Part shown: positions 1,471-43,447 of the stretch, piece by piece
How positions within the stretch are numbered: the stretch's first letter is position 1
Layout of the letters: each line of letters begins with the position of its first letter
NCBI GenBank assembly: GCA_963823345.1
Contig: CAWGLE010000004.1
Span: 513,166 to 577,165 of the forward strand
Reading direction: 5' to 3'
Length of the DNA stretch: 64,000 nucleotides
Source of the DNA: Candidatus Sulfomarinibacteraceae bacterium
GTDB taxonomy: Bacteria; Acidobacteriota; Thermoanaerobaculia; Thermoanaerobaculales; Sulfomarinibacteraceae
The notes under the pieces: model-generated
Seen by the model: only the letters and a program-made list of their open reading frames with translations
The model's database searches: none
What the model was told of the DNA's origin: nothing
Position numbers and translations under genes: made by a program

Positions 1471-1577
1471 GCATGGAATCGTAGGGTGGGCTTCAGCCCA
1501 CCATCAGAAGAGTGGACGTATGTGATGAACTCGAGGGGCTCGCTGCAGTTCCGAAGGTGGGCCAGGGCCCACCCTAC
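1471..1577. repeat. REPIN type 1, copy 1 (GTAGGGTGGGC..GCCCACC / GGTGGGCC..GGCCCACCCTAC)
   Basis: 107-bp element. It has two inverted GC hairpins with outward GTAG/CTAC heads (1481-1502 and 1556-1577). It is collinear with 10321-10427 (same length, same gcatggaatc leader) and related to 48195-48264. Confidence 0.8.
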
Positions 1578-1693
1578 CCATCGGACCTGGCCGCCCGGCG
1601 GCCAGGTCCTCGCCAGGGTTACGCGTCGGGATGTCGCCTCAGCGTCTTCGCGCCTTTGCGTTGAGATCCGAGATGTCTCCCGCGGTCCTGATG

Positions 1694-5238: not shown

Positions 5239-6171
5239 ATGGTGGAACACCCGTCCCCCGTTGCCGGTTTCCGTCTGGCGCTGCGGTTGCACAAACTGGT
5301 GTTGGCCGTGTGGCTGGTGTCCATCGCCGTCTTTCTGCCGGCTCAGCTGATGGTGGATTTCGCCGCCGGGCCGGTTCTCGCCAACCTCCCGGAAAGCGGT
5401 CCTGCGCCGGGTGACAGCGTGTTGATCTTCGTCGAGCTCCTTCGCCCGATCGCGGTCCCGTTGGCCATCGCGCTCATCCTCGGGTGGGTGGCCCTCGCCG
5501 CCTGGTCGATCCTGTGGCACGCGGGGACGGTGCGCTGGTGGTTGGGTGCGGGCGCGGCGCGGGTGCGGCTGTCCGAGATTCTCGGCCACGGCGTCGTCTG
5601 GTGGTGGCGCTATGCCCGTCTCGCGGTTGTCGCGGGCGTGGCCGCGGCCGCCACCCTGGCCGCGGTGTGGTTGCCGGTAACGGACGCCGTGCGCGGCGGG
5701 GAGACTGAGACCACCGCGGGCCGCGCGGGGCTCATGCTGCTGGCCGCGGTCGTGATCTCCGCGTCGGCCCTCGCGATTTTTTGGATTGCGACCCTGCGCG
5801 GCGGATGGTTGCTCGGGGAGTCGGGGCGGCGCTCGGCCCTGGTGGCGTGGCTGAGGGGCCTCGGCGCGACCCTGAGGCGGCCCTTGCGGAGCTTTCTGCC
5901 GTTGCTGGTCTGGGGCGCTCCGGCTCTGCTGTTTCTCGCCGTCCCGCTGTTTGTGAGCGGCGTCATGGCGGTGCCTGCATTGATGGCGGCCTCTCTCGCA
6001 GCCGCCCTGTGCGGGGTGGCCTTCTACCTGTCCTACGCCCCGCGGGAGCCGAACGAGGAGTGGTACCGCAAGATGCAGGCCCGCGCCGCATCCCGCGTGG
6101 CGGCGCCGGCGGAGAAGGCGGACGCCTACCGGACGACGCGGATTCCAACGCAGCCACCGTTGGAACGTTAG
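5239..6171 (+). CDS. Multi-pass membrane protein, unknown function
   Basis: 310 aa; starts 1 nt after the peptidase stop; several long hydrophobic segments. Confidence 0.6.
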   Translation: MVEHPSPVAGFRLALRLHKLVLAVWLVSIAVFLPAQLMVDFAAGPVLANLPESGPAPGDSVLIFVELLRPIAVPLAIALILGWVALAAWSILWHAGTVRWWLGAGAARVRLSEILGHGVVWWWRYARLAVVAGVAAAATLAAVWLPVTDAVRGGETETTAGRAGLMLLAAVVISASALAIFWIATLRGGWLLGESGRRSALVAWLRGLGATLRRPLRSFLPLLVWGAPALLFLAVPLFVSGVMAVPALMAASLAAALCGVAFYLSYAPREPNEEWYRKMQARAASRVAAPAEKADAYRTTRIPTQPPLER

Positions 6172-6203
6172 AACGTTTCAACGTTGAACGTTCAAACGTT
6201 TCG
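6159..6203. repeat. Tandem 8-mer array (GTTNNAAC)n = AACGTT palindromes every 8 nt
   Basis: gttggaac gttagaac gtttcaac gttgaac gttcaaac gtttcgg. It spans the stop codon 6169-6171 of the membrane-protein gene. Same family as 49348-49387. Confidence 0.8.
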
Positions 6204-6277
6204 GGCACCTCCGCCGCACGAGGGCCTTTGTGCGGCCGGGACGGCCGCACCACAATGCTCCCGGATGGCGGTGGCCC

Positions 6278-6308
6278 GATTGTGGGGCAGCCGTCCCGGC
6301 TGCCGGGA
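6278..6308. repeat. REP hairpin family GGCAGCCG-nnn-CGGCTGCC
   Basis: ccgattgtggGGCAGCCGtccCGGCTGCCggg. The reverse complement recurs at 25861-25879, ~36380 (degenerate) and 43881-43899. Confidence 0.75.
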
Positions 6309-6318
6309 GGGTGGGTGG

Positions 6319-6353
6319 GAATTCCTAATTCCGAATTCCTAATTCCGAATTCA
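6319..6353. repeat. Tandem 7-mer array (GAATTCC/TAATTCC)n
   Basis: gaattcc taattcc gaattcc taattcc gaattca. The last unit contains the pckA stop codon (6351-6353, minus strand). Confidence 0.8.
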
Positions 6354-10137: not shown

Positions 10138-10161
10138 CACAGAGACACAGAGACACAGAGG
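10138..10161. repeat. Tandem 8-mer array (CACAGAGA)3
   Basis: cacagaga cacagaga cacagagg, starting 3 nt after the methyltransferase stop (10133-10135). Confidence 0.75.
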
Positions 10162-10320: not shown

Positions 10321-10427
10321 GCATGGAATCGTAGGGTGGGCTTCAGCCCACCATCAGAGTCGTTCACATACGAGGCGGACTCGAGGGACCCGAGGCAACT
10401 CTGAAGGTGGGCCGAGGCCCACCCTAC
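10321..10427. repeat. REPIN type 1, copy 2
   Basis: gcatggaatcGTAGGGTGGGCttcagCCCACC...GGTGGGCCgaGGCCCACCCTAC; same 107-bp layout as 1471-1577. Confidence 0.8.
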
Positions 10428-10525
10428 CCATACAAGTAAGTGGGAAATCTGGGTCAATCCGGGTGATCTGTGGACAACCTTTGCGCCTTTGCGTCTCTGC
10501 GTTAAAAACGATGACGCTTCTGCAA

Positions 10526-11827
10526 TCAATCGCGGTTGATGAGACGGACCGAACCCGCGGGCCCGTCCGTGACGCGGCCGACGACGGCGGCGCCGGGGAG
10601 TCGGCGGACGAGGGCCTCGGCGTGCTCGGGCAGGACAGAGGCGAGCAGCCCCCCCGAAGTCTGAGGGTCGAGACAGAGGTCCACCCGGAGGTCGTCAGCG
10701 CCCCCCTCGACTTCGAGCACGGACGCCACGCTCTCCCGGTTCTTGCCCGCCCCCGCCGGCACCAGACCGGTGGCCGCGGCATCGAGCGCCCCCGGCAGCA
10801 ACGGCAGCGCGGAAAGATCGATCTCGACCGCAATCCCCGAGGCCTCGGCCATCTCGGCCGCGTGGCCGGCGAGCCCGAACCCGGTGACGTCGGTGACCGC
10901 GTGCGGCGCGAAATCGTGCAGCGCATCGGCCGCCTCGCGGTTGAGGGTCGCCATCCACCGCAGGGCGGTCGAGAGGTGGGTGGGGTCGACCATCTCGGCC
11001 TTGGCTGCGGTGGTGAGGACCCCGGTGCCGAGTGGTTTGGTGAGCACCAGTGCGTCGCCGGTCAGTGCGCCGGCGTTGCGCCAGATCCGGTCGGGGTGAA
11101 CGGTGCCGGTGACCGCGAGGCCGTACAGCAGCTCCTGTCCCTCCACCGTGTGGCCGCCGGCGAGCACGCCGCCCGCCTCCGCGAGGGCCGAGAGCCCGCC
11201 GCGCAGGATCTCGGTCAAGGCTTCGCGTCCGAGCTTGGCGAGCGGGTAGCTGACCAGATTCATGGCGGCCAGGACCGTGCCGCCCATGGCCCAGACATCG
11301 GACAGGGCGTTGACGGCGGCGATGCGGCCGAAGGTGTAGGGGTCGTCCACCATCGGCGGGAAGAAATCGGTGGTGTGGATGATGGCGATCTCCGGCGATA
11401 CCCGCACGACGCCCGCGTCGTCGGCGTACTCGATGCCGACCAGCAGGTCGTCGGACTCGAGCCGCGGCAGACCGCACAGCACCTTTTCGAGCAGGCCCTT
11501 CGAGAGCTTGGCGCCGCAGCCGCCGTAGGCCGAACCGGCGGTCAGCTTGACCTCACGCTCGGCAGACACCGCATCGAGGGCGCTCGGCACCCAGCCTCCA
11601 GCGCGCCGCCGGAACACAGCTTGCGGTTCGAGGCCGATCGTTCCCAGGATTCCGGCGAGCGCTTCGGCCTCGGCGGCGCGAACCTCGAGCACAACCCCGC
11701 ACTGCGAACTCACCGACCGCGGCGCCGGCACCGTATCCACGTCGAGTCCGGCATCGCGGGCCGCCTTTTCAGCGCGCATCACCCGCTGCACGGTGCCGAA
11801 CACCACGAGGAGATCCCGCGCGCTCAA
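10526..11827 (-). CDS. selD: Selenide,water dikinase (selenophosphate synthetase) with N-terminal DUF3343-like extension
   Basis: 433 aa. TTG start with GGAGGAG SD. Residues ~95-433 align to SelD (..SAYGGCGAKLSKG.., TTDFFPPMVDDPYTFGRIAAVNALSDVWAMGG, DVTGFGLAGH, DPQTSGGLL), Cys form. The first ~90 aa (LLVVFGTVQRVMRAEKAARDAGLDVDTVPAPRSVSSQCGVVLEV) look like the small putative Se/S-carrier DUF3343 fold. Confidence 0.9.
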   Translation of the reverse strand: MSARDLLVVFGTVQRVMRAEKAARDAGLDVDTVPAPRSVSSQCGVVLEVRAAEAEALAGILGTIGLEPQAVFRRRAGGWVPSALDAVSAEREVKLTAGSAYGGCGAKLSKGLLEKVLCGLPRLESDDLLVGIEYADDAGVVRVSPEIAIIHTTDFFPPMVDDPYTFGRIAAVNALSDVWAMGGTVLAAMNLVSYPLAKLGREALTEILRGGLSALAEAGGVLAGGHTVEGQELLYGLAVTGTVHPDRIWRNAGALTGDALVLTKPLGTGVLTTAAKAEMVDPTHLSTALRWMATLNREAADALHDFAPHAVTDVTGFGLAGHAAEMAEASGIAVEIDLSALPLLPGALDAAATGLVPAGAGKNRESVASVLEVEGGADDLRVDLCLDPQTSGGLLASVLPEHAEALVRRLPGAAVVGRVTDGPAGSVRLINRD

Positions 11828-16462: not shown

Positions 16463-16650
16463 TGTAGGGGCGGACAAATCCTGCCAACGCTACTCAAAGA
16501 CGTGGGCGGGCCCTGAAGGACCCGCCACGCGGACGCCGATTTCAGCCTCCCACGGGCGGGCCGTAAACGACCCGCCTACGCCGTTCAGGGACCTCTCGAC
16601 CGTTTATGAACGACGTAGGCAGGTCCTTCACGTAAACGACCCGCCTACGC
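16463..16650. repeat. Cluster of REP type 3 hairpins (GTAGGCGGGTC..GACCCGCC family)
   Basis: gtaggggcggac.., cgtGGGCGGGCCctgaagGACCCGCCacg, GGGCGGGCCgtaaacGACCCGCCTACg, cGTAGGCaGGTCcttcacgtaaacGACCCGCCTACg. Related to 31586-31686. Confidence 0.7.
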
Positions 16651-25831: not shown

Positions 25832-25879
25832 TGCAGGCGGGACGCCTGCACCACACACCCGGCAGCCGGGACGGCTGCC
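25832..25879. repeat. Two REP hairpins with 8-bp stem and GGA loop
   Basis: TGCAGGCG-gga-CGCCTGCA (25832-25850; also at 42080-42098) and GGCAGCCG-gga-CGGCTGCC (25861-25879). Confidence 0.75.
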
Positions 25880-25972
25880 CCACAACGGACTATCGGCCGT
25901 CTCGGTCGGGCACGTGCTCCACGGCCCAGGGCGCGGCCGTCGCGACAAAAACTCATCTGAGGTATCCTCGAC

Positions 25973-29432: not shown

Positions 29433-31559
29433 TCAGACCGATCGTGCTCGTTCCACGTCTTTGCAGCCTGCCGGAGCTGATCGCGGAGCTGGGCCGCGTC
29501 GGCGTCCTGGGTCTGCCAGCGTACGAGGCGCGGCCAGTTGGCGAGCAGCGATTCGTGGATGATTTCGACCTGGCGCACCGGCTCGTGCTCGTCCTCGTGG
29601 ATTTCGTAGGAGGTCAGGAGCCGCGCATCGATCAATTCCGCGCAAGACCTCTTCGGCAGCGCTGCGGGAGGGGATTAACCCCTCCCCTACGGCTTTCCTT
29701 GCGTTCGTAGGGGCGGGGTTTATCCCCGCCCTGCGATGGTCCCCATCGAAGATCGACAGGATCTCGTCCCATTCGCGGACGGCTCGGGTGCCTTCTGTGG
29801 TGACGAGGTTTCGGAAGAGTTCTCTTACAACGGGAATGCGTTCGACGCCGATGCGGGCAATCGTCGCCTCTGCGTGCTGGGCAAGCGCTCCGCCGACCCC
29901 GCCGATGTCCTGGTAAGCCTGGCGGGTGAGGAGTCCGGTTTCGCGATTTCGCATCTCCCAGAGCCGCGCCGCAGCGAAGGCCAGCAACGGGAGTGCTCCT
30001 CGTTCACCTTCCACCTCGACGAGCATCTCGTCCACCAGATCGTCGTCCTCAAAGCGGTAGCCGCACTGGAGGGCGGGTTGTGTCAGGGCGCGCCGGAGGT
30101 TGGCACCGGTCGGCGGATTGAGCATCGTCAGCTCGTTGAAGACCGGTTGAAACTGCTCGTGCGAGCTGCACGATGCGGCGAAATCATCCCTCATGGACAG
30201 CAGCACGTGGGTGTCGGCTTCGAGGGGGAGTCGGGCGAGCAGGGTCGCAAAGTGCTTTTGGCGATCGCCGGAATGGAGGGTGAATAACTCCTCGAATTGG
30301 TCGAGGATTAGAAGGGTCGCGCGATGATTTCCTCGTGCGTTCGCCATCGTCTCGATGATGACGTCCGGGTTTTCGGGATCCGTCAGAAGACGCTCGAGGT
30401 TGTCGTGCTCGTGAGAAAGCACGGAAGTCAGCGCGCCGCGCAGCGAGGCAACAGCTGCGTTTCCGGGAGTGCATCGCAGAATTATCCAGCCGGTTGGAGC
30501 ATGCGCCATCAACCCCGCTCTGATGAACGAGGTTTTTCCTGCGCCAGATGGCCCCATGATTGCGATCATCCGCGCCGGTCCCTCGAGCTTGCGCCACATC
30601 TGCTCGACCTCGGCCTCGCGGCCGAAGAAGTACTCGGCGTCTGATTCGGTGAAGGAGGCGAGACCGGGGTAGGGGTGGAGGTCGTCGGCGCCTTCGACGC
30701 GGAGGGTCACGTCTTCGAGAGCGCGCGTCAGCGTGTGGGCGGAGTTGTAGCGGCCTTCGCGGTCTTTTTTTACGGCCTTCTGGATTACCTGAGCCCACGG
30801 CGTCTCGGGGACCTTTGCGGGTTCGGAGCGCACGCCTTCCCACACGCTCTGGCGGGAGTCGAAGCTCTTGATGCCCTCGGGGCTCACCATCTCGGCCAGC
30901 ACCACGCCTGCCGCGTAGACGTCGGCCCGTGCGTCGAGCGTCTGGCCTGCCGCCTGCTCGGGCGACATGTAGGCCGGGGTGCCGGCGACCGTGCCGCCGC
31001 CCTCGGTCTCCTGCCGGGCGAGGCCGAAGTCCATCACGACCACCCGCCCGGCCCGGGTCAGCATGATGTTCTCGGGTTTGATGTCGCGGTGGATCAGCCC
31101 GGCCTTGTGGATCGCCTCCAGTCCGGCGAGAAACTGCGAGGCGATGTCCTGGGCTTCCTTGAGCTCGAGCGGTCCACGCTCTTGAAGAACGCCGAGAAGG
31201 GTCGCCCCGTCGACGTACTCCATGGACACCAACTCGCGGCCCTCGACCTCGATCAGATCGAAAATGCGGCAGACGTTGGGCGACACCACCTCGCGGGCCG
31301 CTCGCACTTCCTGGCGCAGCAGTTCGAGTCGCCGCTCGGATTTGAAGAACTCCGGTCGCAGCGCCTTCAGCGCCACCTCGACCCGGAGCTTGAGATCGAA
31401 GGCGTGCCACACCTCACCCATCCCACCGCGCCCGAGCATCTCGAGAATCTGGTACCGCTCACCCAGCACCTGGCCGGAGGTGAACCCCTGCATCCCCTCC
31501 GGCATGTCGAGGGTCTCGCCCTCACCCTCGGTGCGGGTGGGGAGGTTTGGGTCAGTCAT
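29433..31559 (-). CDS. Kinase + STAND NTPase ORF of paralogue B (708 aa, intact up to just after the REPIN insert)
   Basis: Full kinase motifs, then ..LHPYPGLASFTESDAEYFFGREAEVEQMWRKLEGPARMIAIMGPSGAGKTSFIRAGL.., ..LLILDQFEELF.. (Walker B-like). Confidence 0.65.
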   Translation of the reverse strand: MTDPNLPTRTEGEGETLDMPEGMQGFTSGQVLGERYQILEMLGRGGMGEVWHAFDLKLRVEVALKALRPEFFKSERRLELLRQEVRAAREVVSPNVCRIFDLIEVEGRELVSMEYVDGATLLGVLQERGPLELKEAQDIASQFLAGLEAIHKAGLIHRDIKPENIMLTRAGRVVVMDFGLARQETEGGGTVAGTPAYMSPEQAAGQTLDARADVYAAGVVLAEMVSPEGIKSFDSRQSVWEGVRSEPAKVPETPWAQVIQKAVKKDREGRYNSAHTLTRALEDVTLRVEGADDLHPYPGLASFTESDAEYFFGREAEVEQMWRKLEGPARMIAIMGPSGAGKTSFIRAGLMAHAPTGWIILRCTPGNAAVASLRGALTSVLSHEHDNLERLLTDPENPDVIIETMANARGNHRATLLILDQFEELFTLHSGDRQKHFATLLARLPLEADTHVLLSMRDDFAASCSSHEQFQPVFNELTMLNPPTGANLRRALTQPALQCGYRFEDDDLVDEMLVEVEGERGALPLLAFAAARLWEMRNRETGLLTRQAYQDIGGVGGALAQHAEATIARIGVERIPVVRELFRNLVTTEGTRAVREWDEILSIFDGDHRRAGINPAPTNARKAVGEGLIPSRSAAEEVLRGIDRCAAPDLLRNPRGRARAGAPGRNHPRIAARQLAAPRTLADPGRRRGPAPRSAPAGCKDVERARSV
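29666..29731. repeat. REPIN type 2 embedded in paralogue B coding region
   Basis: GGGAGGGGATTAACCCCTCCCCTAC-ggctttccttgcgttc-GTAGGGGCGGGGTTTATCCCCGCCC. Confidence 0.8.
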
Positions 31560-31585
31560 GGATGACTCGAGAGTCGATTCCCAGT

Positions 31586-31686
31586 GTAGGCGGGTCCTTC
31601 AGGGCCCGCCACCACCGGCGTCGAGTCATTTCTACCGCATTTGACTCCGGGTGGATCCGTGGGCGCGCCCTGAAGGACGCGCCTAC
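31586..31686. repeat. REPIN type 3 between paralogues B and C
   Basis: GTAGGCGGGTCCttcagGGCCCGCC ... GGGCGCGCCctgaagGACGCGCCTAC (outward GTAG/CTAC heads). Confidence 0.7.
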
Positions 31687-31722
31687 ATTTCGTTGAGTCG
31701 CCTCGGGCGTTCGGGCGGAAAC

Positions 31723-31750
31723 TCCGAAATCCGAAATCCGAAATCCGAAA
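31723..31750. repeat. Tandem 7-mer array (TCCGAAA)4
   Basis: Four perfect units, 7 nt from the stop codon of paralogue C (31758-31760, minus strand). Confidence 0.8.
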
Positions 31751-31757
31751 TCGCGAC

Positions 31758-34700
31758 TCACCATGTCGGCACCGTTTCCCAACCGGGGAAGGGATCGTGG
31801 GTGAGCTTCCAGCCGGTGGAGGATTCCTCGTCGCGGACGACACGGAGGTTGGTGAGGGTTTTGAGCTTGGCGATGAGATCCTCACGCGGCAGGGTGTGGA
31901 GCGGCGGTTTCGAGAGATCGGGCATGGGCCAGAGACGGATCGTCTTGTCCTTGCCTCCTGATGCGACCCACCGGCCAAGAGGATCGAAGGCGAGGGCGGT
32001 CACGCCGTTTTCGTGGCCAAGAAGAAGGTGGGGCTCTTCGCCGGTGATCGGCCCCACTCGAACCACACCGTCCGTGTCACCCGTCGCCACAATCTTGTTT
32101 TTTTGGTCGAGGGCGACGGCATAGACCCTGGTCCCATGGGTCTCGAGAGTCCTCGTCTCGCCAGTTTCAAAGTCCAAGAAAACAGCACGCTTTGGCGCGC
32201 TTGCTTCGAGCACATAGCCCTCAATGACGATCGCTTGTTTCCCGTCCGAGCTGGCATCAAAGAGAAAAATATTTCCCTCGTAGAGCAGTTCGCTTTCACC
32301 GGTCACGAGATCCCATTTCCGCAGCCCGAACTCGCTCGAGGAAAGGAGGTGACCGTCATTCGTGAATTGAAGACAGAACACTCGACGGCCCTCGGGATAC
32401 AGCACCGCCACTTCTTCCCCTGAAGTGCGGTCCCAAACGAGGATTCGGATCTCAGGGGTCTTTACATCCAACACGCCGGCGCAGAGCCGGCCGTCGGGAC
32501 TGATCGACGCGCCCCAAAAACTCACCGGCCCGATGTCCGGTACGGTCTGGAACTCCTCGCCCGAAAGAGAGAACAACCGAGCGCCCGACCACGCGGTACC
32601 AGCGAGGAGCTGCTCCCCGTCGGGCGTCCTTGCAAGGTCGTACATCTGTTTGCCCGGGTCCTTCAAAAGGATGCGGCCTGGAGGGAGGACATCACCCTCC
32701 AACGGCCAAAACCTCACTGTGTCATCCATCGAGGACGAAACCAGCCAGCGACCCTCCGGACCGAACAGAAGGTCCATGACCTCCTTTTCATGACGCCGGA
32801 TCACCGCCGGGTACGGCCGAGCCAGCGGCCACAGCGCGGCGCCGGCCTTGTCGGCACTCGCCAGCCAGTTTCCGTTCGGGTGGAAAGACAGGCCCCACAA
32901 GACGTCAACGTCGCCGCGGAGCAGGAACACCGGCTCGGCATCGGCAGGCGCAGCCATCGGCCAGAGCCGAATTTTGAGGTCGGAACCACTCCTGGCTATT
33001 TGCCAGCCTACACGGTTGAGGCCCCACCATCCGATACCGTCGTCACCGACTGGGAATGGGCGGAGAAATCGTGGCGGATTGGTATCAAGCAACCAGATCC
33101 ACGATGTGACCTCTCCTTCCTCAAACACCGAGGCTTCCAGTAGTGATCCATCGGCGGTGATGTCGAGAATCGCTCCCGGAGGGGCACTGAGAAGGATCGG
33201 CGGCGAATCTCCCGCGTTGTCCCAGAGGCGAATTCGTCCATCCTCGGCTATGGTGGCGAAAAAACGCCCCAACGGATCGAAGAGAACTTTCCTGACGGGC
33301 TCCACGTGGCGGCCCAGCCGGCGTGGTTCGGAGAGGCTGTGTTCGCCGATATCGATGACCAGCACGTCTTCATCCACCACCGCGCCAAGCCAGCGGCCGG
33401 TTCGGCGCTCGAGATCGGTACGGCGGATCCAATCCCTGGAGGTTTTAAAACCGAGGTCCGGGGTGCCGAGACGTTTGCGAGCGCCGCCAAAGCCGAGGAT
33501 ATCGATGCTTCCTATTTTGCCTTCGAGTACCAGGTACACCATTCGCTGCTGGGTGGCGTTGACGGCCTGTCCCAATAGGCGGGCTGGGCCGTCATAACTG
33601 GCCTCACTGAGCATTCGTCCGTCTGCAACAGACCAGAGTGCGAGGAGTGGGAGCACGGATTTGTCAAAGAACCCGAATGAACTGAAGACACCGGTCTCCA
33701 GCCCCACTCGAATATTGATCCGCCTTGACTCATGCTGGTGCTGGAGCAACTCACTGGTTCCGTCAGCCTTGATTAACCGCAGGTTGCCGGTCCCGTCTCC
33801 TGACTGCACCAGGGCGCGCCCGTCGGGGGTGAACTCGGCTTGCCAAGAACTCTCGTCATTGATGACCAGTGCGGTCGGCCCCCCCCACAACGCCGCCTGG
33901 GCCAAATAGCGGGCGCTCGGACTGTCGGCGAGTTCGAGGCTGGTGATGGCGTATGCGACGGCGGCGGACGGATAGGAATCGAGTTCCTGTTGCCCGAGGG
34001 CAAGGAGTTCATTCGCTTCAGCACGGCGGGTCTCTCTTTCGCTCTTCGCCCACATCCCGCCGAGAATCGAGGCAACTCCGGCGAGCACAACCAACGCAGC
34101 TGCCATGACGAGCCGCCGCCGCCGTTTTCGACGGGTGGCAAAGGAGGTCATTGCCGTGGCGTAGGCCTCCTCGGTCGACGTGAGACCACCCGGGTATCGT
34201 TCCCTCCACAGTTCGAACTCGCGGTAAGCAGTTCCGGTCCAGAGTCGATCATCGTGCCGGCCGTGCTCGTCCCAGGAGCGAGCTGCCTGCCGAAGCTCGT
34301 CGCGGAGCTGGGCTCCTTCCTGGTCCTGCGTTTGCCAGCGCACGAGGCGCGGCCAGTTGGCGAGGAGGGACTCGTGGATGATCTCCACGCGGCGGGTGGG
34401 TTCGTGCTCGTCTTCGTGGATTTCATAGGAGGTCAGCAGGCGGGCGTCGATGAGTTCGCGAAGGACCTCTTCGGGCGATTTGCTGTGGGAATCGCTGAAT
34501 ATTGAAAGAAGCTCACCCCATTCGCGCACCGCGCGCGTGCCCTCTGCGGTCACCAGGTTCCGGAACAGTTCGCGGACGATCGGAATGCGCTCCGAACCGA
34601 TGTGGTCGATAGTTGCTTCGGCGTGCTGGGCGAGCGCGCCGCCGACGCCGCCGATCTCCTGGTACGCTTGACGGGTGAGCAGCCCAGTCTCGCGGTCGCG

Positions 34701-34919
34701 CTTCTCCCACAGACGTGCGGCAGCGAACGCCAGTAGCGGCAACGCGCCGCGTTCGCCTTCGACCTCGGCCAGCATCTCCTCGATCAGCTCATCGTCTTCG
34801 AAGCGGTATCCGCACTTTGTCGCGGGTTGCACGCTGCGCGGCGCAGATCGCCCCCGGTCGGCGGGTCGAGCACCGTGAGTTCTGGAAGATCGGATCGCAG
34901 CGAATCGTGGGCATTGCAT
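31758..34919 (-). CDS. Intact 1053-aa ORF of paralogue C: distal NTPase/helical region - TM - WD40 - conserved tail
   Basis: Homology begins at ..KCGYRFEDDELIEEMLAEVEGERGALPLLAFAAARLWEKRD.. and runs uninterrupted to ..THDPFPGWETVPTW*. The first ~35 codons are out-of-frame junk, so the true start and expression are unclear. Confidence 0.45.
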   Translation of the reverse strand: MQCPRFAAIRSSRTHGARPADRGRSAPRSVQPATKCGYRFEDDELIEEMLAEVEGERGALPLLAFAAARLWEKRDRETGLLTRQAYQEIGGVGGALAQHAEATIDHIGSERIPIVRELFRNLVTAEGTRAVREWGELLSIFSDSHSKSPEEVLRELIDARLLTSYEIHEDEHEPTRRVEIIHESLLANWPRLVRWQTQDQEGAQLRDELRQAARSWDEHGRHDDRLWTGTAYREFELWRERYPGGLTSTEEAYATAMTSFATRRKRRRRLVMAAALVVLAGVASILGGMWAKSERETRRAEANELLALGQQELDSYPSAAVAYAITSLELADSPSARYLAQAALWGGPTALVINDESSWQAEFTPDGRALVQSGDGTGNLRLIKADGTSELLQHQHESRRINIRVGLETGVFSSFGFFDKSVLPLLALWSVADGRMLSEASYDGPARLLGQAVNATQQRMVYLVLEGKIGSIDILGFGGARKRLGTPDLGFKTSRDWIRRTDLERRTGRWLGAVVDEDVLVIDIGEHSLSEPRRLGRHVEPVRKVLFDPLGRFFATIAEDGRIRLWDNAGDSPPILLSAPPGAILDITADGSLLEASVFEEGEVTSWIWLLDTNPPRFLRPFPVGDDGIGWWGLNRVGWQIARSGSDLKIRLWPMAAPADAEPVFLLRGDVDVLWGLSFHPNGNWLASADKAGAALWPLARPYPAVIRRHEKEVMDLLFGPEGRWLVSSSMDDTVRFWPLEGDVLPPGRILLKDPGKQMYDLARTPDGEQLLAGTAWSGARLFSLSGEEFQTVPDIGPVSFWGASISPDGRLCAGVLDVKTPEIRILVWDRTSGEEVAVLYPEGRRVFCLQFTNDGHLLSSSEFGLRKWDLVTGESELLYEGNIFLFDASSDGKQAIVIEGYVLEASAPKRAVFLDFETGETRTLETHGTRVYAVALDQKNKIVATGDTDGVVRVGPITGEEPHLLLGHENGVTALAFDPLGRWVASGGKDKTIRLWPMPDLSKPPLHTLPREDLIAKLKTLTNLRVVRDEESSTGWKLTHDPFPGWETVPTW

Positions 34920-36304
34920 GCGGCTACGAAGTCATCGCGCATTGAAAGCAGCACGTGGATGTCGCTCTCGAGAACGGATCGCCGCAGCAGTTCTGCGAAC
35001 CTCCGCTGTTCTTCGATACCGTTCTGAGTGAACAGCTCTTCGAACTGATCGACGACTACGAGAGCATGTGTGTCCGTTCGCGCCCAGCTGGCCGAGTACC
35101 TGAACGGCGACGTCGGCATCGCCGAAACGAGGAAGCAGCTCGACCGCGTCCGGATCTCCAGCCGTTTCGCCGGCCACCACCCCGGCGAGCGAGGAGGTGG
35201 CTGCGTTTCCGGGAGTCGATCGGATGATCCCCCAGTCCGGCGGAGCGTGGGCCACGCAGCCCGGCCGCGAGAAACGAGGATTTTCCTGCCCCCGAGGGCC
35301 CGATAATTGCGAGCATTCGCGGCGGCCCCTCGAGCTTGCGCCACATCTGCTCGACCTCGGCCTCGCGGCCGAAGAAGTACTCGGCGTCTGCCTCCGTGAA
35401 TGATGCGAGCCCGGGATAAGGGTGGAGGTCGTCGGCGCCTTCGACGCGGAGGGTCACGTCTTCGAGGGCGCGCGTCGAGGGTGTGGGCGGAGTTGAAGCG
35501 ACCCTCGCGGTCTTCCTGACGGCCTGTTGGATGACCTGCGCCCACGGGGTGTCCGGGATCTTTGCGGCTCGGAGCGCACGCCTTCCCAGACGCTCTGCCG
35601 GGAGTCGAAGCTCTTGATTCCGTCGGGGCTCACCATCTTCGGCCAGCACCACGCCGCTGCGTAGACGTCTGCCCGCGCGTCGAGCGTCTGTCCCGCCCCT
35701 GTTCGGCGACATGTAGGCCGGAGTGCCGGACACCGGCCTCCGCCCTCGGTTTCCTGACGGGCGAGGCCGAAGTCGATCACGACGACCCGACCGGCCCGGG
35801 TGAGCATGATGTTTTCCGGCTTGATGTCGCGGTGGATCAGGCCGGCCTTGTGGATGGCTTCGAGCCCGGCGAGGAACTGCGAAGCGATGTCCTGGGCTTC
35901 TTTGAGTTCGAGCGGCGCGCGCTCCTGGAGCACTCAAGCAACGTCGCGCCGTCGACATACTCCATCGACACCAGCTCACGGCCTTCGACCTCGATCAGAT
36001 CGAAGATGCCGGCAGACGTTGGGAGAGACCACCTCACGAGCGGCGCGGACTTCCTGCCGCAACAGTTCCAGCCGCCTCTCGGACTTGAAGAACTCGGGCC
36101 GCAATGCCTTCAGCGCCACCTCGACCCGCAGCTTCAGGTCGAAGGCGTGCCACACCTCGCCCATCCCGCCACGTCCGAGCATCTCGAGGATCTGATAGCG
36201 GTCACCCAGCACCTGTCCGCGGTGCGAAGCCCTTCATCCCCTCCGGCATGTCGAGGGTCTCGCCCTCACGCTCGGTGCGGGTGGTGGAGATCGTGGTCAG
36301 TCAT
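31758..36304 (-). pseudogene. Paralogue C of kinase - STAND NTPase - TM - WD40 protein (N-terminal kinase/NTPase part decayed)
   Basis: ATG 36304 (MTDHDL..). An extra C gives a stop after 12 codons. Kinase and NTPase pieces lie in ORFs 35976-36212, 35454-35933, 35056-35979 and 34784-35545, with several shifts and a few replacements (E->D, G->A, M->I). It lacks the REPIN insert (..LLSIFSDSHSKSPEEVL..). Confidence 0.65.
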
Positions 36305-36482
36305 TGGTTATCCGAGTCGGAAGTGACCGGTTTGGTGGACGGGTCACTCCGAGGCCCGCCACCGCCCACCCGGCGGGCCGGGACGGCTGCCCCACAACGG
36401 ACACATTGGCCACTTTGTCGGGCACGCGCTCCGCGGCCCCGGCGCTGTCGTCGCGACAGGAACTATCTGAGGTATCCTCGAC

Positions 36483-36923
36483 ATGGAGGCCCCGTTCATG
36501 GATCCGAAAGATCTGCTGGCTGGACGCATCACCGCGGTGCTGTCGGCTCGTCCGGAGATTCTCGAGGCGTATCTCTTCGGATCCCACGCTCGGGGTGAGG
36601 GCCAGGCGCACAGCGATATCGACATCGCTGTGTTCATCGATGAAGCACGAGGTCGGACCGGGCCCCTTCGGATACCGAGCGGAACTGACCTCCGCGCTGA
36701 TGAGCGGTCTCGGCACCAACGCCGTCGATGTCGTGGTGCTCAATACCGCGCCGCCTCTCCTGTACCACCGGGTTCTGCGCGACGGCTCCCGTCTGTACTC
36801 TCGCGACCTTCGCGCGACGACGGTTCGCGAGGGCCGGGCCCTCTCGCGCCACTGCGATTCGTGCCGCAGCTCGCGAAGATCGACGCCATACTAGGTGCTC
36901 GAGCGCCGTTCTCGGAGAGGTAG
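36483..36923 (+). pseudogene. mntA: MntA-type nucleotidyltransferase, copy 2, middle third out of frame
   Basis: ..YLFGSHARGEGQAHSDIDIAVFIDEA (frame 0), then a +1 shift near 36645-36655. ..PGPFGYRAELTSALMSGLGTNAVDVVVLNTAPPLLYHRVLRDGSRLYSRDL..ALSRHCD is in frame 1, then a -1 shift near 36858 returns to ..FVPQLAKIDAILGARAPFSER*. Confidence 0.65.
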
Positions 36924-36925
36924 CC

Positions 36926-37357
36926 GTGGGCCCGGGTGAGATCGACGCCCTGATCATTCGGCGGCACCTGGCCGCTCTCCGCGAGTCGCTCCAGGTACTC
37001 GCCGCTCGCAGCGACGTCTCTCTCGAGGAACTCAACGCCGACACCGAACTGCTGTGGGTTGTTGAGCGCGGTCTCCAACTCTGCGCACAAAACGCGCTCG
37101 ACATCGCGACGCACATTGCAGCCGGCCGGGGGCGCGATGTCCGGACTACGCCAGCGCCATCGACGAGCTCGGACGCCTCGGCGTGCTCGACCGATGAGTT
37201 CGTACACGAGTTTCGCAACGTCGCCGGTTTCCGGAACGTGCTGGTGCACGGCTATCTCGATGTGGACCTGGATGTCCTGTACACGCTCCTGCACGACCGT
37301 CTCGGAGACTTCGAGTCCTTTGCGGCCCGAATCGAGACCCACCTCGAAAACCTCTGA
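36926..37357 (+). CDS. hepT: HepT-type HEPN (DUF86) toxin, copy 2; open frame but with a 19-codon recoded patch
   Basis: GTG 36926. ..EFRNVAGFRNVLVHGYLDVDLDVLYTLL.. (Rx4H). Between ~37140 and ~37197 a -1/+1 pair turns the ancestral VPDYASAIDELGRLGVLD into VRTTPAPSTSSDASACSTD. Confidence 0.6.
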   Translation: MGPGEIDALIIRRHLAALRESLQVLAARSDVSLEELNADTELLWVVERGLQLCAQNALDIATHIAAGRGRDVRTTPAPSTSSDASACSTDEFVHEFRNVAGFRNVLVHGYLDVDLDVLYTLLHDRLGDFESFAARIETHLENL

Positions 37358-37430
37358 GCCTCGGTTGTGCCCGCCAGGGTCGCCTGATCTCGGATGAGAT
37401 CGCCCGAAGCGTAAGCGTCTCCTCATGACA

Positions 37431-40400
37431 TCACCACGTCGGCACCGTTTCCCACCCCGGGAAGGGATCATGGGTGAGCTTCCACCCAGTGGTGGACTCT
37501 TCGTCGCGGACGACGCGGAGGTTGGTGAGGGTTTTGAGCTTGGCGATGAGATCCTCACGCGGCAGGGTGTGGAGCGGCGGCTTCGAGAGGTCGGGCATAG
37601 GCCAGAGGCGGATCTCGGTTCCCGACGACGAGGCGATCCAACGATCCAGAGGGTCGACAGATACGGCGTAGATCTCGTCCGGATTTCCAAGCAGAAGATG
37701 AGGTTCCTCGCCAGTTATGGGTCCGACGCGGATCACGCCGTTCGAGTCACCCGTTACAGCGACCGTGCCCGATGGATCTATCGCGACCGCTGTCACGCGG
37801 TCCCCATGGGACTTGAGCGTATTTGTCAATCCGGTCTCGAGGTCGAGCGACACGGCTTTACCTAAAAGGGCCAAGGACGCCCTCTCGTTCCCAACTTCGG
37901 ACAGAAGCGCGTGGGTACTGTCCACGCCAACCGCAAACTTCTCCACAGGTTTTTCGAACAGGGCTTCCGTGACACCGGTTTCAAAATCCCAGCCGAACAA
38001 ACCCGATGAGTGCGAATACAGAACGAGCCCCCCCTCCGTGAATTGGAGGAAAGGAGTGGCATTGGTTTTGGCCAATTCGAGCGCTGCTATCTCTTCGGAC
38101 GAGGAAAGGTCCCACACTCGTACAACGGTTTCCTCATAATTCCCTTTCAAACCGGTGGCTGCAGCGAATCGGCCGTCGGGGCTGAACGCCGCTCCCCATA
38201 CAATTTTGGCGACGCCTGGAAGATCAACAGGTTTCTCATTGCTGAGTGAGAGCAGTTTTGTGCCGGTGGCGTGGGTCCCGAGAAGGAGGTGTTCCCCGTC
38301 AGGGGAAGCAGCGAGACCGTACGGATAAGCCCCCGCCTCGAACACAGTCCGGGCCGCCGGCACGTTATCGCCCTCCAAATCCCACACGCGAACGGCGCCG
38401 GTTGAGTCGACACCGCTCGTCGCGAGCCACCTGCCCTCGGGTCCGAATACCAAATTCATGGCTCGCTCCTCGTACCGATTGATCACCGCTGGGTAGGGTC
38501 AGGTCACTGGCCAGAGAGTCAGGCCGTTTGTAAACGAGGTGGCCAACCACCCGCCATTCGGGTGAACTCTCACGCGTCTCGGGGTGCTGGCGTCACCTCG
38601 TTGCAAGATTGTGGGTTCGGCGTCAGCCGGCGCCCGCAACCACCACAGCCGGGTTTTCGGGTCTGGATTGAGGATGCTGACGATCTGACCTTCAACTGGA
38701 TTGAGCGTCCAGCCCGCGGTTCCGCTGCTCTTCCCAAGATCGATGTGGCGAAGCAAGGTCGGTTCGCGGTCCCGAAGAGACCAGATCCACGATTCGACCA
38801 TGTCGTTTTTCCGTGTGATAACCTCGAACAACGATCCGTCGCCACTGATACTGAGTCGAATGTCGCCGCGTGGCCCCCCTTTGATCTCCCGTGGCGGCGA
38901 CTCCCCATCCAGGTCTCGCAGACGAATCCGCCCGTCTTCGGAGAGTGAAACGACGAATCGACCCTGGGGGTCGCATTGGAGGCGCACGACTGGAGTATCG
39001 AGAAAATCGAGATGTCGCGGCTCTGAGAGTTCGTGGTCTCCGACCTCGATCACGTAGACATTTTGACCGGACCCAACGGCAAACCATTTTCCTTTCGGGG
39101 CGCTTTGGCAAAGAACTGTCGAACGCGAGTCAAATGGGAGAGCGCCGAGGCGTTCGGAGCTGCCGTCGAATCCTAAGGCATCGATGAAGAAACGGTCGTC
39201 CTCTATCGACATCAGCAATACGCGGGCTCGCCCCAGGTCGAAATAGATTCTCCGAGTATTTTCTGGAATCCCGGATCGGCCGGTGGAAAGCAGTTTTTTT
39301 TCAGGAGCCGACCAGAGCGCCCATAGTTCGGCGTTGCCCCAGGGACTTGTCGCGAAAACTCCTGATTCCGTATCCATCGTCAGACCAACCCAGTCATCGT
39401 GCACGTCCTCTAACAGTTCATCGGTTCCTTCAGCACCGATAACATGCAGTTGGTAAGGGGCCGCATCCGTTGCCTGCACGAGCCACTGACCGTCAGGGGT
39501 GAACTCGATTTCCCACGACGGAATTTCGTTGACAACAAACGCTGTCGGGCCTTTCCAGAGCGCCTTGAGTGCGAGGAGCCGAGCCTCTGAACTGTCCGCC
39601 AGTTCGAGACTGGCCGTCGCGTATGCCACTGCGGCTGACGGATACGACTCGAGTTCTACCTGCGCCTGGGAAAGAAGGGTGGCGGCCTCGGCGCGGAGAG
39701 TTTCGCGGACGCTTCGCTGCCAGAATGTGCCGACGACCGCGAGGCCGGCGAGGAGGACAGCGAACCCTGCGCTCACCGCTATTCGACGCCTGCGCCGACG
39801 TCGCCCGGCGAGGGAGGTCATGGCGTTCCCGAAATCTCTTTCGATCTCGGTCAGGCCACCGGGATAGCTTTCGCGCCACACGGCGAACTCTCGGTAAGCC
39901 GAACCGGTCCAAAGCAGATCGTCAGATCGGTCGTGCTCGCTCCACGTCTTCGCTGCCTGCCGGAGTTGATCGCGGAGCTGGGCCGCATCGGCGTCCTGGG
40001 TCTGCCAGCGCACCAGCCGCGGCCAGTTGGCGAGCAGAGATTCGTGGATGATTTCTACTCTACGGGTTGGTTCGTGTTCGTCTTCGTGGATTTCGTATGA
40101 GGTCAGGAGTCGGGCGTCGATGAGTTCGCGAAGGACCTCTTCTGCGGCAGTGCGGGAGGGGATGAACCCCTCCCCTGCGGCTTTCCCTGTCTTCGTAGGG
40201 GCGGGGTTTATCCCCGCCCTGGGGTAGCTCCCACCGAAAATCGAAAGGAGTTCATTCCATTCACGGACGGCGCGGGTGCCTTCGGCGGTGATGAGGTTTC
40301 GGAAGAGTTCTCTGACGATGGGGATCCTCTCGACACCGGTGCGATCGATTGTTGCCTCGGCGTGCTGCGCCAATGCCCCGCCGACGCCGCCGATGTCGTG

Positions 40401-42045
40401 GTACGCCTTTCGGGTGAGAAGCCCGTTCTCCTTGTCGCGTCGTTCCCAAAGCCTCGCCGCCGCAAAGGCAAGCAGCGGGAGTGCTCCGCGTTCGCCTTCG
40501 ACCTCGGCGAGCATCTCGTCGACCAGATCGTCGTCCTCGAAGCGGTAACCGCACTGCAGAGCAGGTTGGGTCAGGGCGCGCCGAAGCGGTGCACCCTCCG
40601 GTGGGCCGAGCATCGTCATGTCGGCGAGCGCCGGACGCAGTGGCTTGTTCTGGTGGCAGCGGAAGAGATAGTCATCGCGCATGCTCAGCAGCACGACGAT
40701 GTCGGCCTCGAGAACGAGCGCGTTCAAGAGTTCTGCGATCGTGCTCTGGATCTCTGGCGGGTTGAGGGTGAACAGCTCCTCGAACTGATCGATGATCAAT
40801 AGTGCGTGGTCATGCTTGCGACGCCAACGAGCGACAAGGTCCACCGCGACGTCCAGCTCGTGAAAGCGTAGCAAGAGTTTTACGCCATCAGAATCTCCCG
40901 CCGTCTCGGTTGCGAAGGCTCCGGCAAGGGCGTTGACGGGTGCGTTGCCGGGGGTGCATCGAACAATTCCCCAGCCTGGCGGAGCGTGCGGCGCCAGCCC
41001 CGCCCCCAAGAAGGACGTTTTTCCGGCTCCCGAAGGGCCCGCGATTGCGAGCATTCGCGGCGGCCCTTCGAGCTTGCGCCACATCTGCTCGACCTCGGCC
41101 TCGCGGCCGAAGAAGTACTCGGCGTCTGATTCGGTGAAGGAGGCGAGGCCGGGGTAGGGGTGGAGGTCGTCGGCGCCTTCGACTCTGAGGGTGACGTCTT
41201 CGAGCGCTCTGGTCAGGGTGTGGGCGGAGTTGTAGCGGCCCTCGCGGTCTCTTTTTACCGCCTGTTTAATGACTGGCGCCCATGGCGTGTCGGGGACCTT
41301 TGCGGGCTCCGAGCGCACGCCTTCCCAGACGCTCTGCCGGGAGTCAAAACTCTTGATGCCTTCGGGACTCACCATCTCGGCCAACACCACGCCCGCTGCG
41401 TAAACGTCGGCCCGCGCATCGAGGGTCTGGCCTGCAGCCTGCTCCGGCGACATGTAGGCGGGTGTGCCGGCGACAGTCCCGCCGCCCTCGGTCTCCTGGC
41501 GGGCGAGGCCGAAGTCCATCACCACCACCCGCCCGGCACGGGTGAGCATGATGTTTTCGGGTTTGATGTCGCGGTGGATGAGGCCAGCCTTGTGGATCGC
41601 TTCGAGGCCGGCGAGGAACTGCGAGGCGATGTCCTGCGCTTCCTTGAGCTCGAGCGGACCGCGCTCCTGGAGCACGCCGAGAAGCGTCGCGCCGTCGACG
41701 TACTCCATCGACACCAGCTCGCGGCCCTCGACTTCGATCAGATCGAAGATCCGGCAGACGTTGGGCGAGACCACCTCACGAGCGGCGCGGACTTCCTGCC
41801 GCAACAGTTCCAACCGCCTCTCGGACTTGAAGAACTCGGGCCGCAATGCCTTCAGCGCCACCTCGACCCGCAGCTTCGAGGTCGAAGGCGTGCCACACCT
41901 CGCCCATCCCGCCGCGGCCGAGCATCTCCAGCACCTGATAGCGCTCACCGAGCACCTGACCGGGGGCGAAGCCCTTCATCCCCTCCGGCATGTCGAGGGT
42001 TTTGCCCTCGTCCTCGGTGCCTGTGGGGAGGTCGCGGTCAGTCAT
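37431..42045 (-). pseudogene. Paralogue D of kinase - STAND NTPase - TM - WD40 protein (least damaged: one +1 frameshift, one in-frame TGA)
   Basis: ATG 42045 (MTDRDLPTGTEDEGKTLDMPEG..). An extra C at 41877 splits the kinase between the Gly loop and VALK. A 1149-aa ORF (38499-41948) follows, then TGA 38499-38501 where B and C have Arg. The same frame continues for 356 codons to ..GWETVPTW* (37431). Confidence 0.6.
40154..40219. repeat. REPIN type 2 embedded in paralogue D coding region
   Basis: GGGAGGGGATGAACCCCTCCCCTGC-ggctttccctgtcttc-GTAGGGGCGGGGTTTATCCCCGCCC, translated ..AGINPAPTKTGKAAGEGFIPS.. within the intact 1149-aa ORF. Confidence 0.8.
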
Positions 42046-43207: not shown

Positions 43208-43447
43208 ATGGGACGCGTCGGAGCTTATGAGGCAAAGACCCATCTCTCCCGGCTCTTGGAGAGAGTCGCAAAGGGCGAGTGGATCACGATCACCAAGCAC
43301 GGACAACCCGTGGCGATTCTGAAGCCGGTAGAGGATCGGGGAAAGCGGGCCATCGCTGACGTTGTCGCCGACATGCGCAGGTTTCGCAGCGGCCGCGACC
43401 TCGAGGGCGATTCCATTCGAGAACTGATCGAGGACGGCAGGCGATGA
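43208..43447 (+). CDS. Phd/YefM-family type II antitoxin
   Basis: 79 aa; MGRVGAYEAKTHLSRLLERVAKGEWITITKHGQPVAILKPV.. is the typical Phd/YefM N-terminus. There is a 4-nt ATGA overlap with the next gene. Confidence 0.8.
   Translation: MGRVGAYEAKTHLSRLLERVAKGEWITITKHGQPVAILKPVEDRGKRAIADVVADMRRFRSGRDLEGDSIRELIEDGRR

Follow-up and report, generated by a model that had tools for sequence, protein, structure and literature searches.

The stretch of Candidatus Sulfomarinibacteraceae DNA analyzed here (contig CAWGLE010000004.1, positions 513,166 to 577,165; all 64,000 nt are called the window) carries short tandem arrays of AT-rich 7- or 8-nt units at the ends of its genes. The reading preferred here, held with about even confidence, is that these arrays are the outer arms of composite palindromic elements which fill the spacers at gene 3' ends, and that the resulting hairpin acts at the 3' end of the mRNA. 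The elements have a common anatomy and a clear pairing potential, and their two arms covary between genomes. The arrays are biased in position and orientation relative to stop codons, and relatives possess ordinary stem-loops or terminators at the same sites.

Arrays were located by reading the sequence and with Tandem Repeats Finder (TRF). Genes were identified by Pfam, by a gene map based on G+C at third codon positions (GC3) and by synteny. The window has a G+C content of about 65%. TRF found nine arrays of period 7 or 8 in it and none in each of 30 dinucleotide-preserving shuffles. Seven window arrays showed period 7 with 4.6-5.1 copies and 84-100% matches, and period 8 was observed in three more. 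Like heptameric simple sequence repeats (SSRs), the window arrays are built of at least three near-perfect head-to-tail 7-nt units. An earlier note on this DNA had reported ten arrays near stop codons, and sequence reading and TRF recovered each of them at its place (A1 to A10 below). That list overlooked an eleventh array at 10478-10505, the inverted pairing of arrays as hairpin arms, and the G-rich and C-rich boxes. Nine of the 11 arrays are at least 70% outside the called coding sequence. Eight of the ten noted arrays have an inverted partner in their own spacer or are self-complementary, the unlisted partner at 10478-10505 coming in addition.

Read 5' to 3' on either strand, the layout consists of a stop codon, an array of about five 7-nt (sometimes 8-nt) units, a C-rich box, an interior, a G-rich box, a complementary array and another stop or start codon. 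This order from array to complementary array was observed at 45841-46011 and 48024-48359, and also at 6159-6353, there with arms of unlike units. The interior, which forms the loop, varies from 7 to about 265 nt and often contains hairpins resembling repetitive extragenic palindromes (REPs). When all arrays were oriented consistently, most of them were situated directly 3' of a G-rich box (GGGAGGGTGGGTGG, GGGGGAGGGTGGACGG, GGGGTGGATGGGTGG and similar) of the form G3N1G3N1G3N1G2-3.

The regions were folded as single strands and z was computed against shuffles. Between the convergent uvrB and Na/Ca-exchanger genes, A8 (48024-48058, plus strand, GGATTTC-type) overlaps the TGA of uvrB and forms the 5' arm, and A9 (48324-48359, plus strand, a TCCGAAA/TTCGAAA array of GAAATCC type) forms the 3' arm, with 7 nt between it and the stop of the exchanger gene (48367-49353, minus strand). 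Their 35-bp array:array stem, together with pairs between the C-box CCACCCATCCACCCC on the inner flank of A8 (48059-48073, plus strand) and the G-box GGAGGAGGGCGGCAGGGTT directly 5' of A9 (48305-48323, plus strand), closes the entire 341-nt spacer (z -11.75). Before uvrB, A6 (45841-45877, plus strand, (TCGGATT)5, GGATTTC-type) and A7 (45977-46011, plus strand, (GAAATCC)5) are the 5' and 3' arms of a 33-bp stem (z -6.95). Here the C-box CACCCTGCCACCCCC (45878-45892, plus strand) flanks A6 on its inner side and the G-box GGGGAGGGTGGACGG (45962-45976, plus strand) is directly 5' of A7. A6 is inside the open reading frame (ORF) 45330-46016 and is translated; A7 ends 1 nt before the uvrB ATG (46013). 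A3 (10138-10161, (CACAGAGA)3), 2 nt past the stop of a SpoU-methylase gene, is the 5' arm of a stem closing the 390-nt convergent SpoU/SelD spacer (z -5.9). Its partner at 10478-10505, (CCTTTGCG)2-TCTCTGCG, was recovered both by TRF and by the fold; about 20 nt separate it from the stop of the convergent gene 10526-11827 (minus strand). Pairing of G-box and C-box gives a GC clamp in the predicted folds of A8-A9, A6-A7 and the pckA site of the relative L128 described below.

The 8-mer arrays fold back on themselves. A1 (6159-6203), an AACGTT-type palindromic array, spans the TAG stop (6169-6171) of ORF 5239-6171 (plus strand). It is followed on its inner flank by the C-box GGCACCTCCGCC (6204-6215, plus strand), by a GC-rich interior hairpin (6237-6304) and by the G-box GGGAGGGTGGGTGG (6305-6318, plus strand), which becomes a run of four G3 tracts separated by 1-nt loops once the first G of A2 is counted in. 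A2 (6319-6353, GAATTCC/TAATTCC) contains the stop (6351-6353) of the minus-strand pckA gene, a PEPCK_ATP by Pfam. The fold of this spacer (z -4.75) consists of the self-folded A1 and the interior hairpin. A10 (49348-49388), also an AACGTT-type palindromic 8-mer array, fills the spacer from the Omp85 stop to the exchanger start, ends 1 nt before the Omp85 stop, has the short G-box CCGTGGAGGG (49336-49347, plus strand) directly 5' of it and forms a self-hairpin of 15 bp (z -2.4). The 16-bp palindromes reported earlier within the 8-mer arrays are correct. Two further arrays are A4 (31718-31752, minus strand, GAAATCC unit, (GGAUUUC)5 on the transcript), 5 nt past the stop of the nSTAND1-WD40 gene 31758-34919 (minus strand), and A5 (44676-44710, AATTCAA-type), which contains the TAA of an isochorismatase gene (44706-45260, minus strand) identified by synteny. 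The claim that the heptamer always reads (GGAUUUC)n just after the stop applies to the arrays at 31718, 48024 and 48324; it fails for A6 (45841), which is within an ORF, and for A7 (45977), which reads GAAAUCC before the uvrB ATG.

Eight syntenic contigs (L120-L127) and the window represent nine genomes sharing the gene order isochorismatase, hypothetical protein, uvrB, Na/Ca exchanger, Omp85 and TamB. The arm pair of the uvrB/exchanger spacer is GGATTTC/GAAATCC in the window, TTGAGTT/AAAACTC in L120 and L125, TGAATTW/AATTCAA in L121 and L124, GGAATTA/TAATTCC in L122 and GGCTTGR/CAAGCCN in L123. A non-array inverted repeat occupies the spacer in L126 and L127. Arm complementarity was 21.8 of 28 for arms of one genome and 16.0 of 28 for arms of different genomes. 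Both arms switch their unit together from genome to genome, which is evidence for maintained pairing. Array positions persist while the flanking protein diverges to 52-57% identity and the array sequence itself turns over.

Other gene ends showed different ways of occupying the same site. At the Omp85 stop, where the window has A10, plain stem-loops are present in L120, L121 and L124, a full element of array, C-box, G-box and array in L126, and AAGAGTW/CTTAACC arrays in L123 and L127. The SpoU/SelD spacer contains (CACCAAGA)n/(CCTTGGTG)n in L123 and a perfect 30-nt inverted repeat in L127. The A5 site carries an array in L120, L121, L122, L125 and L126, with an inverted partner in L125 and L126, and none in L123 and L127 (L124 was left out). 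At the pckA stop, the closest relative (L128, PckA 88% identical) possesses (GGAATTA)5, a C-box, a 7-nt loop, a G-box and (TCATTCC)4, beginning 5 nt past the stop and folding as one hairpin (z -5.2). The more distant L129, L131, L133 and L135 have canonical terminators with a GC stem and a T-tract at this site. In the compared genomes the gene-end site is always occupied by a hairpin, which suggests that arrays are one way of building it. The stem-loops and canonical terminators at the sites of relatives make a 3'-end signal the best functional guess, and the earlier suggestion of an unconventional terminator or 3'-end signal is plausible.

Some elements in these spacers differ from the common pattern. 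In L126 (9640-9798) and L127 (9646-9760), the place after the uvrB stop at which closer relatives hold array pairs is taken by another inverted-repeat element (…CTGTCATCCCGAGTGAAGG…CCTCACTCAGGATGACAG…), which looks like a member of a widespread short-repeat family. In L125 (1320-1425), an 8-mer array, (GGGGAGCA)13, follows the SpoU-methylase stop. Its copy number is far above the usual of about five units, and a partly complementary C/T-rich stretch is situated at the far end of the spacer.

The ORF upstream of uvrB (45330-46016, plus strand) takes in A6, the interior and A7, and its stop is in an ATGA overlapping the uvrB start. It belongs to a conserved membrane protein family (P0001) with at least 113 homologues and one predicted transmembrane helix, and the family had no Pfam match. 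The named sources of the homologues are Acidobacteriota or Thermoanaerobaculales. The family is always located upstream of uvrB with the ATGA overlap, and its members end in peptides encoded by arrays. The stretch between the conserved domain, which ends in …GIPPLQL, and the uvrB ATG measures 2 mod 3 in all nine genomes, in spite of six different lengths. The ATGA is present at the uvrB start in all nine, eight of nine keep the upstream frame open across both arrays, and in-frame stops are avoided at uvrB even with units containing TAG or TGA. In the homologue P0005 the conserved domain is 95% identical, yet both arms have unlike units, which argues that the arms turn over fast and together. 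The uvrB start is located at the base of the predicted stem, and the hairpin would sequester the start codon. Translation of uvrB might then depend on termination-reinitiation coupling, by ribosomes finishing the upstream ORF and having just unwound the hairpin. The missing Shine-Dalgarno sequence of uvrB is weak evidence for this, because merely 11 of the 31 window genes show one. As units free of stop codons lead gene callers to extend ORFs through arrays, tails encoded by arrays are present in databases on at least 113 proteins of one family, and these variable 'protein' tails are translated microsatellites. In L120 (6944-6975), L121 (6685-6723) and L124 (2359-2392), an extra (GAAATCC)5-type array was observed just upstream of the start of the hypothetical-protein gene, preceded by a G-box in L124. 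Its complement is an array located about 550 nt farther downstream, where the conserved domain of that protein ends, and an alternative long-range pairing is possible; the window does not contain this array.

An exact scan for (GAAATCC)3 in one genome per species found at least 119 loci. The matches listed, to which all survey counts refer, came from Verrucomicrobiota, Planctomycetota, Acidobacteriota, Chloroflexota, Bacteroidota, Patescibacteria, Myxococcota and other groups, and the window is not one of them. The perfect-period length of GAAATCC arrays peaks at 31-34 nt (71 of 138). TRF assigned period 7 to 308 of about 550 arrays at these loci, and the 154 of them built from many other units show an equal peak at 31-34 nt. 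Since many units share the peak, the rule of about five 7-nt units is independent of unit sequence. The length distribution is peaked at about 4.5-5 units and is not geometric, as expected for a preferred copy number. An assembly artefact is an unlikely cause of the peak: assemblies with k=141 and from long reads also give about 32 nt, and arrays up to 131 nt were assembled.

Position and orientation are biased in the survey too. When the stop of a long ORF was at most 15 nt upstream, 37 arrays were in the GGAUUUC sense and 12 in the GAAAUCC sense (p 5e-4), and stop-to-array distances pile up at -2 to +14 nt solely in the GGAUUUC orientation. The claim on orientation made in the earlier note thus holds as a bias. 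Its statement that the arrays are not random microsatellite drift also stands, given that they are tied to gene 3' ends and that the orientation bias recurs in other genomes. Among the spacers of the high-GC relatives, 36% of the convergent ones hold an array, as do 26% of the tandem and 14% of the divergent ones. The arrays thus show the non-coding excess, nearness to stops, strand bias and scarcity between divergent genes that characterize heptameric SSRs. With a partner defined as lying within 600 nt and having at most 3 mismatches in 21, an inverted partner was found for 95 of 304 period-7 arrays and a direct one for 7. The duplex energy was at least half that of a perfect duplex for 44% of arrays and for 13% of a composition-matched control. 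Convergent inverted pairs are frequent, as with the window pairs A6/A7, A8/A9 and A3/10478. Pairs might be expected as a by-product of convergent genes that each end in a sense-oriented array, but same-direction spacers hold pairs too (between the hypothetical-protein gene and uvrB in most of the nine genomes, between Omp85 and the exchanger in L123, L126 and L127, and at loci L090, L107, L060 and L069). Among arrays of units other than GAAATCC, inverted sharing of the unit was counted for 14 of 39 pairs of neighbors within 600 nt and for 9 of 104 pairs farther apart (p 2e-4), and sharing in direct orientation follows the opposite trend. Same-direction pairs and the inverted sharing of rare units therefore indicate that pairs are not a mere by-product of convergent genes. 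Particularly dense (GAAATCC)n arrays, up to 5 per 8 kb, were observed in the metagenome-assembled genome JAFDVJ01 (Acidobacteria bacterium SZAS-13; loci L042, L055, L062, L108 and others). Here 17 of 27 arrays lie at most 15 nt past the stop of a long ORF in the GGAUUUC sense and 2 in the opposite sense, and no G-box accompanies them.

On the proposed mechanism, pairing of two arrays on a single strand would give a stem of about 33 bp with a clamp of C-box and G-box, and the self-complementary AACGTT-type 8-mer arrays would make the stem alone. The hairpin at the mRNA 3' end could be the substitute of this lineage for a terminator, a barrier to 3'-exonucleases or a processing hairpin. Arrays may arise and stay homogeneous by replication slippage combined with a correction in which one arm serves, through the hairpin, as template for the other; this would account for the joint change of unit in both arms. 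Heptamer-arm hairpins occur here in Acidobacteriota, Verrucomicrobiota, Planctomycetota, Chloroflexota, Bacteroidota and Patescibacteria, and elsewhere in Xanthomonas, Geobacter and cyanobacteria. A wider suggestion is offered only tentatively: hairpins whose arms each consist of about five 7-nt units could form 3' ends and insulate transcription units across many phyla, as a widespread device in place of canonical intrinsic terminators. Their arms would be kept complementary by concerted evolution, and hairpins of the Thermoanaerobaculia type would have in addition a G-quadruplex (G4)-like clamp and might also act as switches of translational coupling, as at uvrB. Should the hairpins form 3' ends, a new model would be needed for predicting terminators and calling operons in several poorly studied phyla. 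The equivalence of the sites with stem-loops and canonical terminators in other bacteria offers a concrete, testable function.

The elements share with intrinsic terminators the position right after the stop, and lack the short GC stem, the 3-8-nt loop and the U-tract. In the 44-50 kb part of the window, no consensus match to a canonical hairpin-plus-U-tract terminator was found, compared with 3.2 expected in shuffles, and no Rfam family matched anywhere in the window. Several observations weigh against a hairpin acting at the mRNA 3' end. No U-tract or T-run follows the 3' arms, which are more often A-rich than U-rich, so these are not canonical intrinsic terminators, and their loops, which reach about 265 nt, are atypical of terminators. 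In same-direction spacers, where G.U pairing on the sense and antisense strands was compared, the sense strand was better in five of nine and the means were equal; without an RNA-strand G.U signature, complementarity could be kept at the DNA level or by a purely mutational process. At the locus designated (b), complementarity is weak in three of nine genomes. For A4 and A5 no inverted partner was found in the window. About a third to half of the listed arrays are paired and the rest are single, and single arrays show the same length peak as paired ones. The preferred explanation leaves the unpaired arrays uncovered, that is A4, A5 and about half or more of the wider sample. Moreover, the survey loci were gathered for containing arrays and their genes were called by crude ORF or GC3 heuristics, and termination, processing and stabilization are all deduced from position.

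The 273 kb of sequence from the lineage contain 91 motifs of the form G2+ N1-3 G3+ N1-3 G3+ N1-3 G2+. An array is directly 3' of the motif in 18 of the 91 and directly 5' in 1; random placement gives 0.38. The 5' arm shows a bias of G over C (34 vs 10). As the elements are strand-symmetric, this bias and the polarity of the G-box belong to the single strand and not to gene direction. The box is not the Shine-Dalgarno sequence of a downstream gene, since seven of eight modules face a gene of the opposite strand at its 3' end. Nor is it that of uvrB, from whose ATG it is about 37-50 nt upstream, the Shine-Dalgarno core being limited to the same 11 window genes anyway. Several G-boxes are formally G4 motifs with 1-nt loops.

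The first alternative is an element acting at the DNA level: the palindromic arrays and G4-like boxes would extrude as cruciforms or G4s in duplex or single-stranded DNA, and could then be topological or protein-binding sites between transcription units, in the way that REP/BIME elements bind gyrase and IHF in E. coli, or roadblocks on the template strand. We consider it unlikely but worth keeping in view. Complementarity of the arms is plain Watson-Crick with no sense-strand G.U signature, and the elements are strand-symmetric, each strand having G3N1G3N1G3N1G2-3 immediately 5' of its array (18:1). For the adjacent gene, the G motif of the template strand is just beyond the AT-rich array, arrays are commonest between convergent genes, and related heptamer repeats of Xanthomonas form G4s in vitro (PMC4692102). 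On the other hand, adjacency to stops within 0-5 nt and the kept frame at uvrB point to the level of mRNA and translation, RNA-type intrinsic terminators occupy the orthologous sites in other bacteria, and many G-boxes have just three G3 tracts or just G2 tracts.

A slightly less probable explanation takes the arrays as a mutational by-product. Polymerase would stall at stable intergenic structures such as GC-rich hairpins, G-boxes and REP-like elements and slip in the adjacent AT-rich DNA to give 7-nt arrays, and quasi-palindrome template switching would make the flanks complementary. Coding sequence would halt the spread, which would explain why arrays touch stop codons; they do end exactly at coding boundaries on both sides. 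The module of a G-run followed by an array is polar and hints at the origin of arrays: they abut the 3' side of G-run motifs, the side on which a polymerase copying that strand would stall. The fast turnover of units (P0005) and the period of 7 with a length of about 31-34 nt, independent of the unit and recurring in many phyla of the listed loci, agree with such an origin, as does the slippage proposed for heptanucleotide SSRs, the commonest long SSRs of prokaryotes according to work cited in PMC4679880 and PMC4692102. A by-product accounts poorly for lengths that are peaked and not geometrically decaying, for array positions that persist at 52-57% flanking-protein identity despite sequence turnover, for a site that always holds some hairpin, and for a uvrB frame kept through both arrays with in-frame stops avoided. 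Reading the arrays also made evident no gradient of unit degeneracy (age) away from the G-box.

It is improbable that the arrays are multivalent sites for a single-strand RNA- or DNA-binding protein such as CsrA, a cold-shock protein with an oligonucleotide-binding (OB) fold, or S1, the last two being candidates already put forward for other heptamer repeats. Such sites would accommodate the more than half of listed arrays that are unpaired and still have about 5 units. Each genome prefers a few units across its loci, stop-adjacent arrays are mostly G/U-rich in sense orientation, and CspB binds one protein per heptamer according to the review part of PMC4679880. Against this, covariation concerns the partner arm and not a motif, and units vary between loci of one genome (AATTCAA, GGATTTC, GGAATTC, CACAGAGA, AACGTT 8-mers). 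The CsrA-type GGA sites proposed in the earlier note, and a CsrA/RsmA array in general, are rejected because orthologous arrays of TTGAGTT, TGAATTT and AATTCAA have no GGA, the GGA units of the window are in stems and not in loops, and complementarity of the arms is kept while their sequence is not. Phase-variation SSRs are also rejected: the arrays come after stops, their neighbors are housekeeping genes (pckA, uvrB, bamA-like), and the one in-frame case keeps its frame. Mobile units like transposable elements of the miniature inverted-repeat kind (MITEs) or REPINs with terminal inverted repeats built of arrays, or the insertion scars at stops which the earlier note had considered, are very improbable, because two inverted arms around an interior and dispersed REP-like hairpins in array spacers are outweighed by interiors whose sequence and length vary from locus to locus and from genome to genome, by the recurrence in the window of small interior hairpins alone and of no array-interior-array unit, by the same spacers being occupied in nine genomes with differing units and interior lengths at 52-80% flanking-protein identity, and by flanks on which no target-site duplication was seen.

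Three families of dispersed hairpins were observed beside the arrays. REP-like family 1, GTAGGGTGGGC-(TTCA/CGAG/CAAG)-GCCCACC(A/T)TCAG, is found at window positions 1482-1580, 10331-10431 and 48190-48281 as intergenic, REPIN-like inverted doublets, two of the three between array arms. REP-like family 2, (T)GTAGGCGGG(T/C)CC…GG(G/A)CCCGCC, is found at 16501-16526, 31585-31610 and 31662-31690, with an inverted doublet beside A4, and GTAGGCG hairpins resembling it are present in L127. The third, GTGGGGCAGCCGTCCCGGCTGCCGGG, is found at 6282-6307, 25858-25885, 36377-36397 and 43878-43901; its first copy is the 3' half of the interior hairpin between A1 and A2 and runs into the A2 G-box. The neighborhood of A4 is a cluster of large paralogous genes combining nSTAND1-NTPase, Ser/Thr kinase and WD40 domains (29433-41948). 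The nSTAND1 domain seems to be split there, with profile positions 1-305 in ORF 29433-31559 and 197-378 in 31758-34919, and A4 is between the two. Directly upstream of A5 (43208-44646) are two small gene pairs (79+139 aa and 79+131 aa), which by synteny correspond to antitoxin/PIN toxin-antitoxin modules in L120 and L121.

Among known hairpins at gene 3' ends, bidirectional Rho-independent terminators follow the stops between convergent genes, have a GC core stem flanked by complementary AT-rich tracts and are strand-symmetric. The window elements occupy the same slot with the same symmetry. They differ in lacking a U-tract, in a 3' arm that is more often A-rich, in a stem of about 33 bp with a clamp and in loops of up to about 265 nt. 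REPs, bacterial interspersed mosaic elements (BIMEs) and REPINs are hairpin-forming extragenic repeats at gene 3' ends of proteobacteria, often inverted doublets forming long hairpins. REPs stabilize the upstream mRNA and bind gyrase and IHF. They are copies of one imperfect palindrome of 20-40 nt with a GTAG-type head, mobilized by REP-associated tyrosine transposases (RAYTs). The window arrays are likewise hairpins at gene 3' ends, but they share an architecture and no sequence and evolve in place. They are not dispersed copies of one palindrome; the REP-like families beside them are separate. Cyanobacterial short tandemly repeated repetitive (STRR) heptamers are a further comparison.

Heptanucleotide arrays are the commonest long SSRs of prokaryotes by a survey cited in PMC4679880, and as PMC4692102 and PMC4679880 present them they have no established function. 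Rehm et al. 2015 (PMC4692102) described heptamer SSRs of GGGAATC in Xanthomonas and GGGGAYT in Nostoc, which are tandem, strongly intergenic and of preferred copy number. They are mostly within 50 bp of a stop on the coding strand, some overlapping it, and are scarce between divergent genes. Each Xanthomonas genome has 70-75 convergent inverted pairs, whose position and type (single or pair) are kept between species while the length varies; the function was left open. The window arrays agree with them in 7-nt tandem units, stop proximity, strand bias, preferred copy number and inverted pairs. In Xanthomonas and Nostoc the G-rich unit itself forms the G4 and four units are preferred. The window units are AT-rich and diverse (GAAATCC, AATTCAA, GAATTCC), hold at most GG where a GGGNATC-type repeat has a G3+ tract per unit, number about five, and have the G-runs in a separate box on the inner side. 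The genome paper of Geobacter metallireducens (PMC2700814) depicts sites of five tandem heptanucleotide repeats as strand-switching pairs, annotated as regulator binding sites. MacGregor 2015 (PMC4679880) reported TAACTGA heptamer repeats between genes of Beggiatoaceae, cyanobacteria and Bacteroidetes; most are situated just before a start codon, and a role in translation initiation was proposed for them. Both share with the window short intergenic arrays (2-6 units, often about 5) of one heptamer and favorite units specific to each genome, and both lack the clamp of G-box and C-box.

The earlier note knew of no described class that matched, but heptamer arrays near stops, inverted pairs included, are a known class (PMC4692102, PMC2700814, PMC4679880). 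Joint change of the arms, terminator-equivalent sites and a polar G-run module were not found in these three papers; cross-genome covariation of arms and equivalence to plain terminators are thus additions to the Xanthomonas and Nostoc study (PMC4692102). What is new here is the lineage, the diversity of AT-rich units that have a polar G-box apart from them, arms that covary from one genome to another, and the equivalence, site for site, to ordinary terminators.

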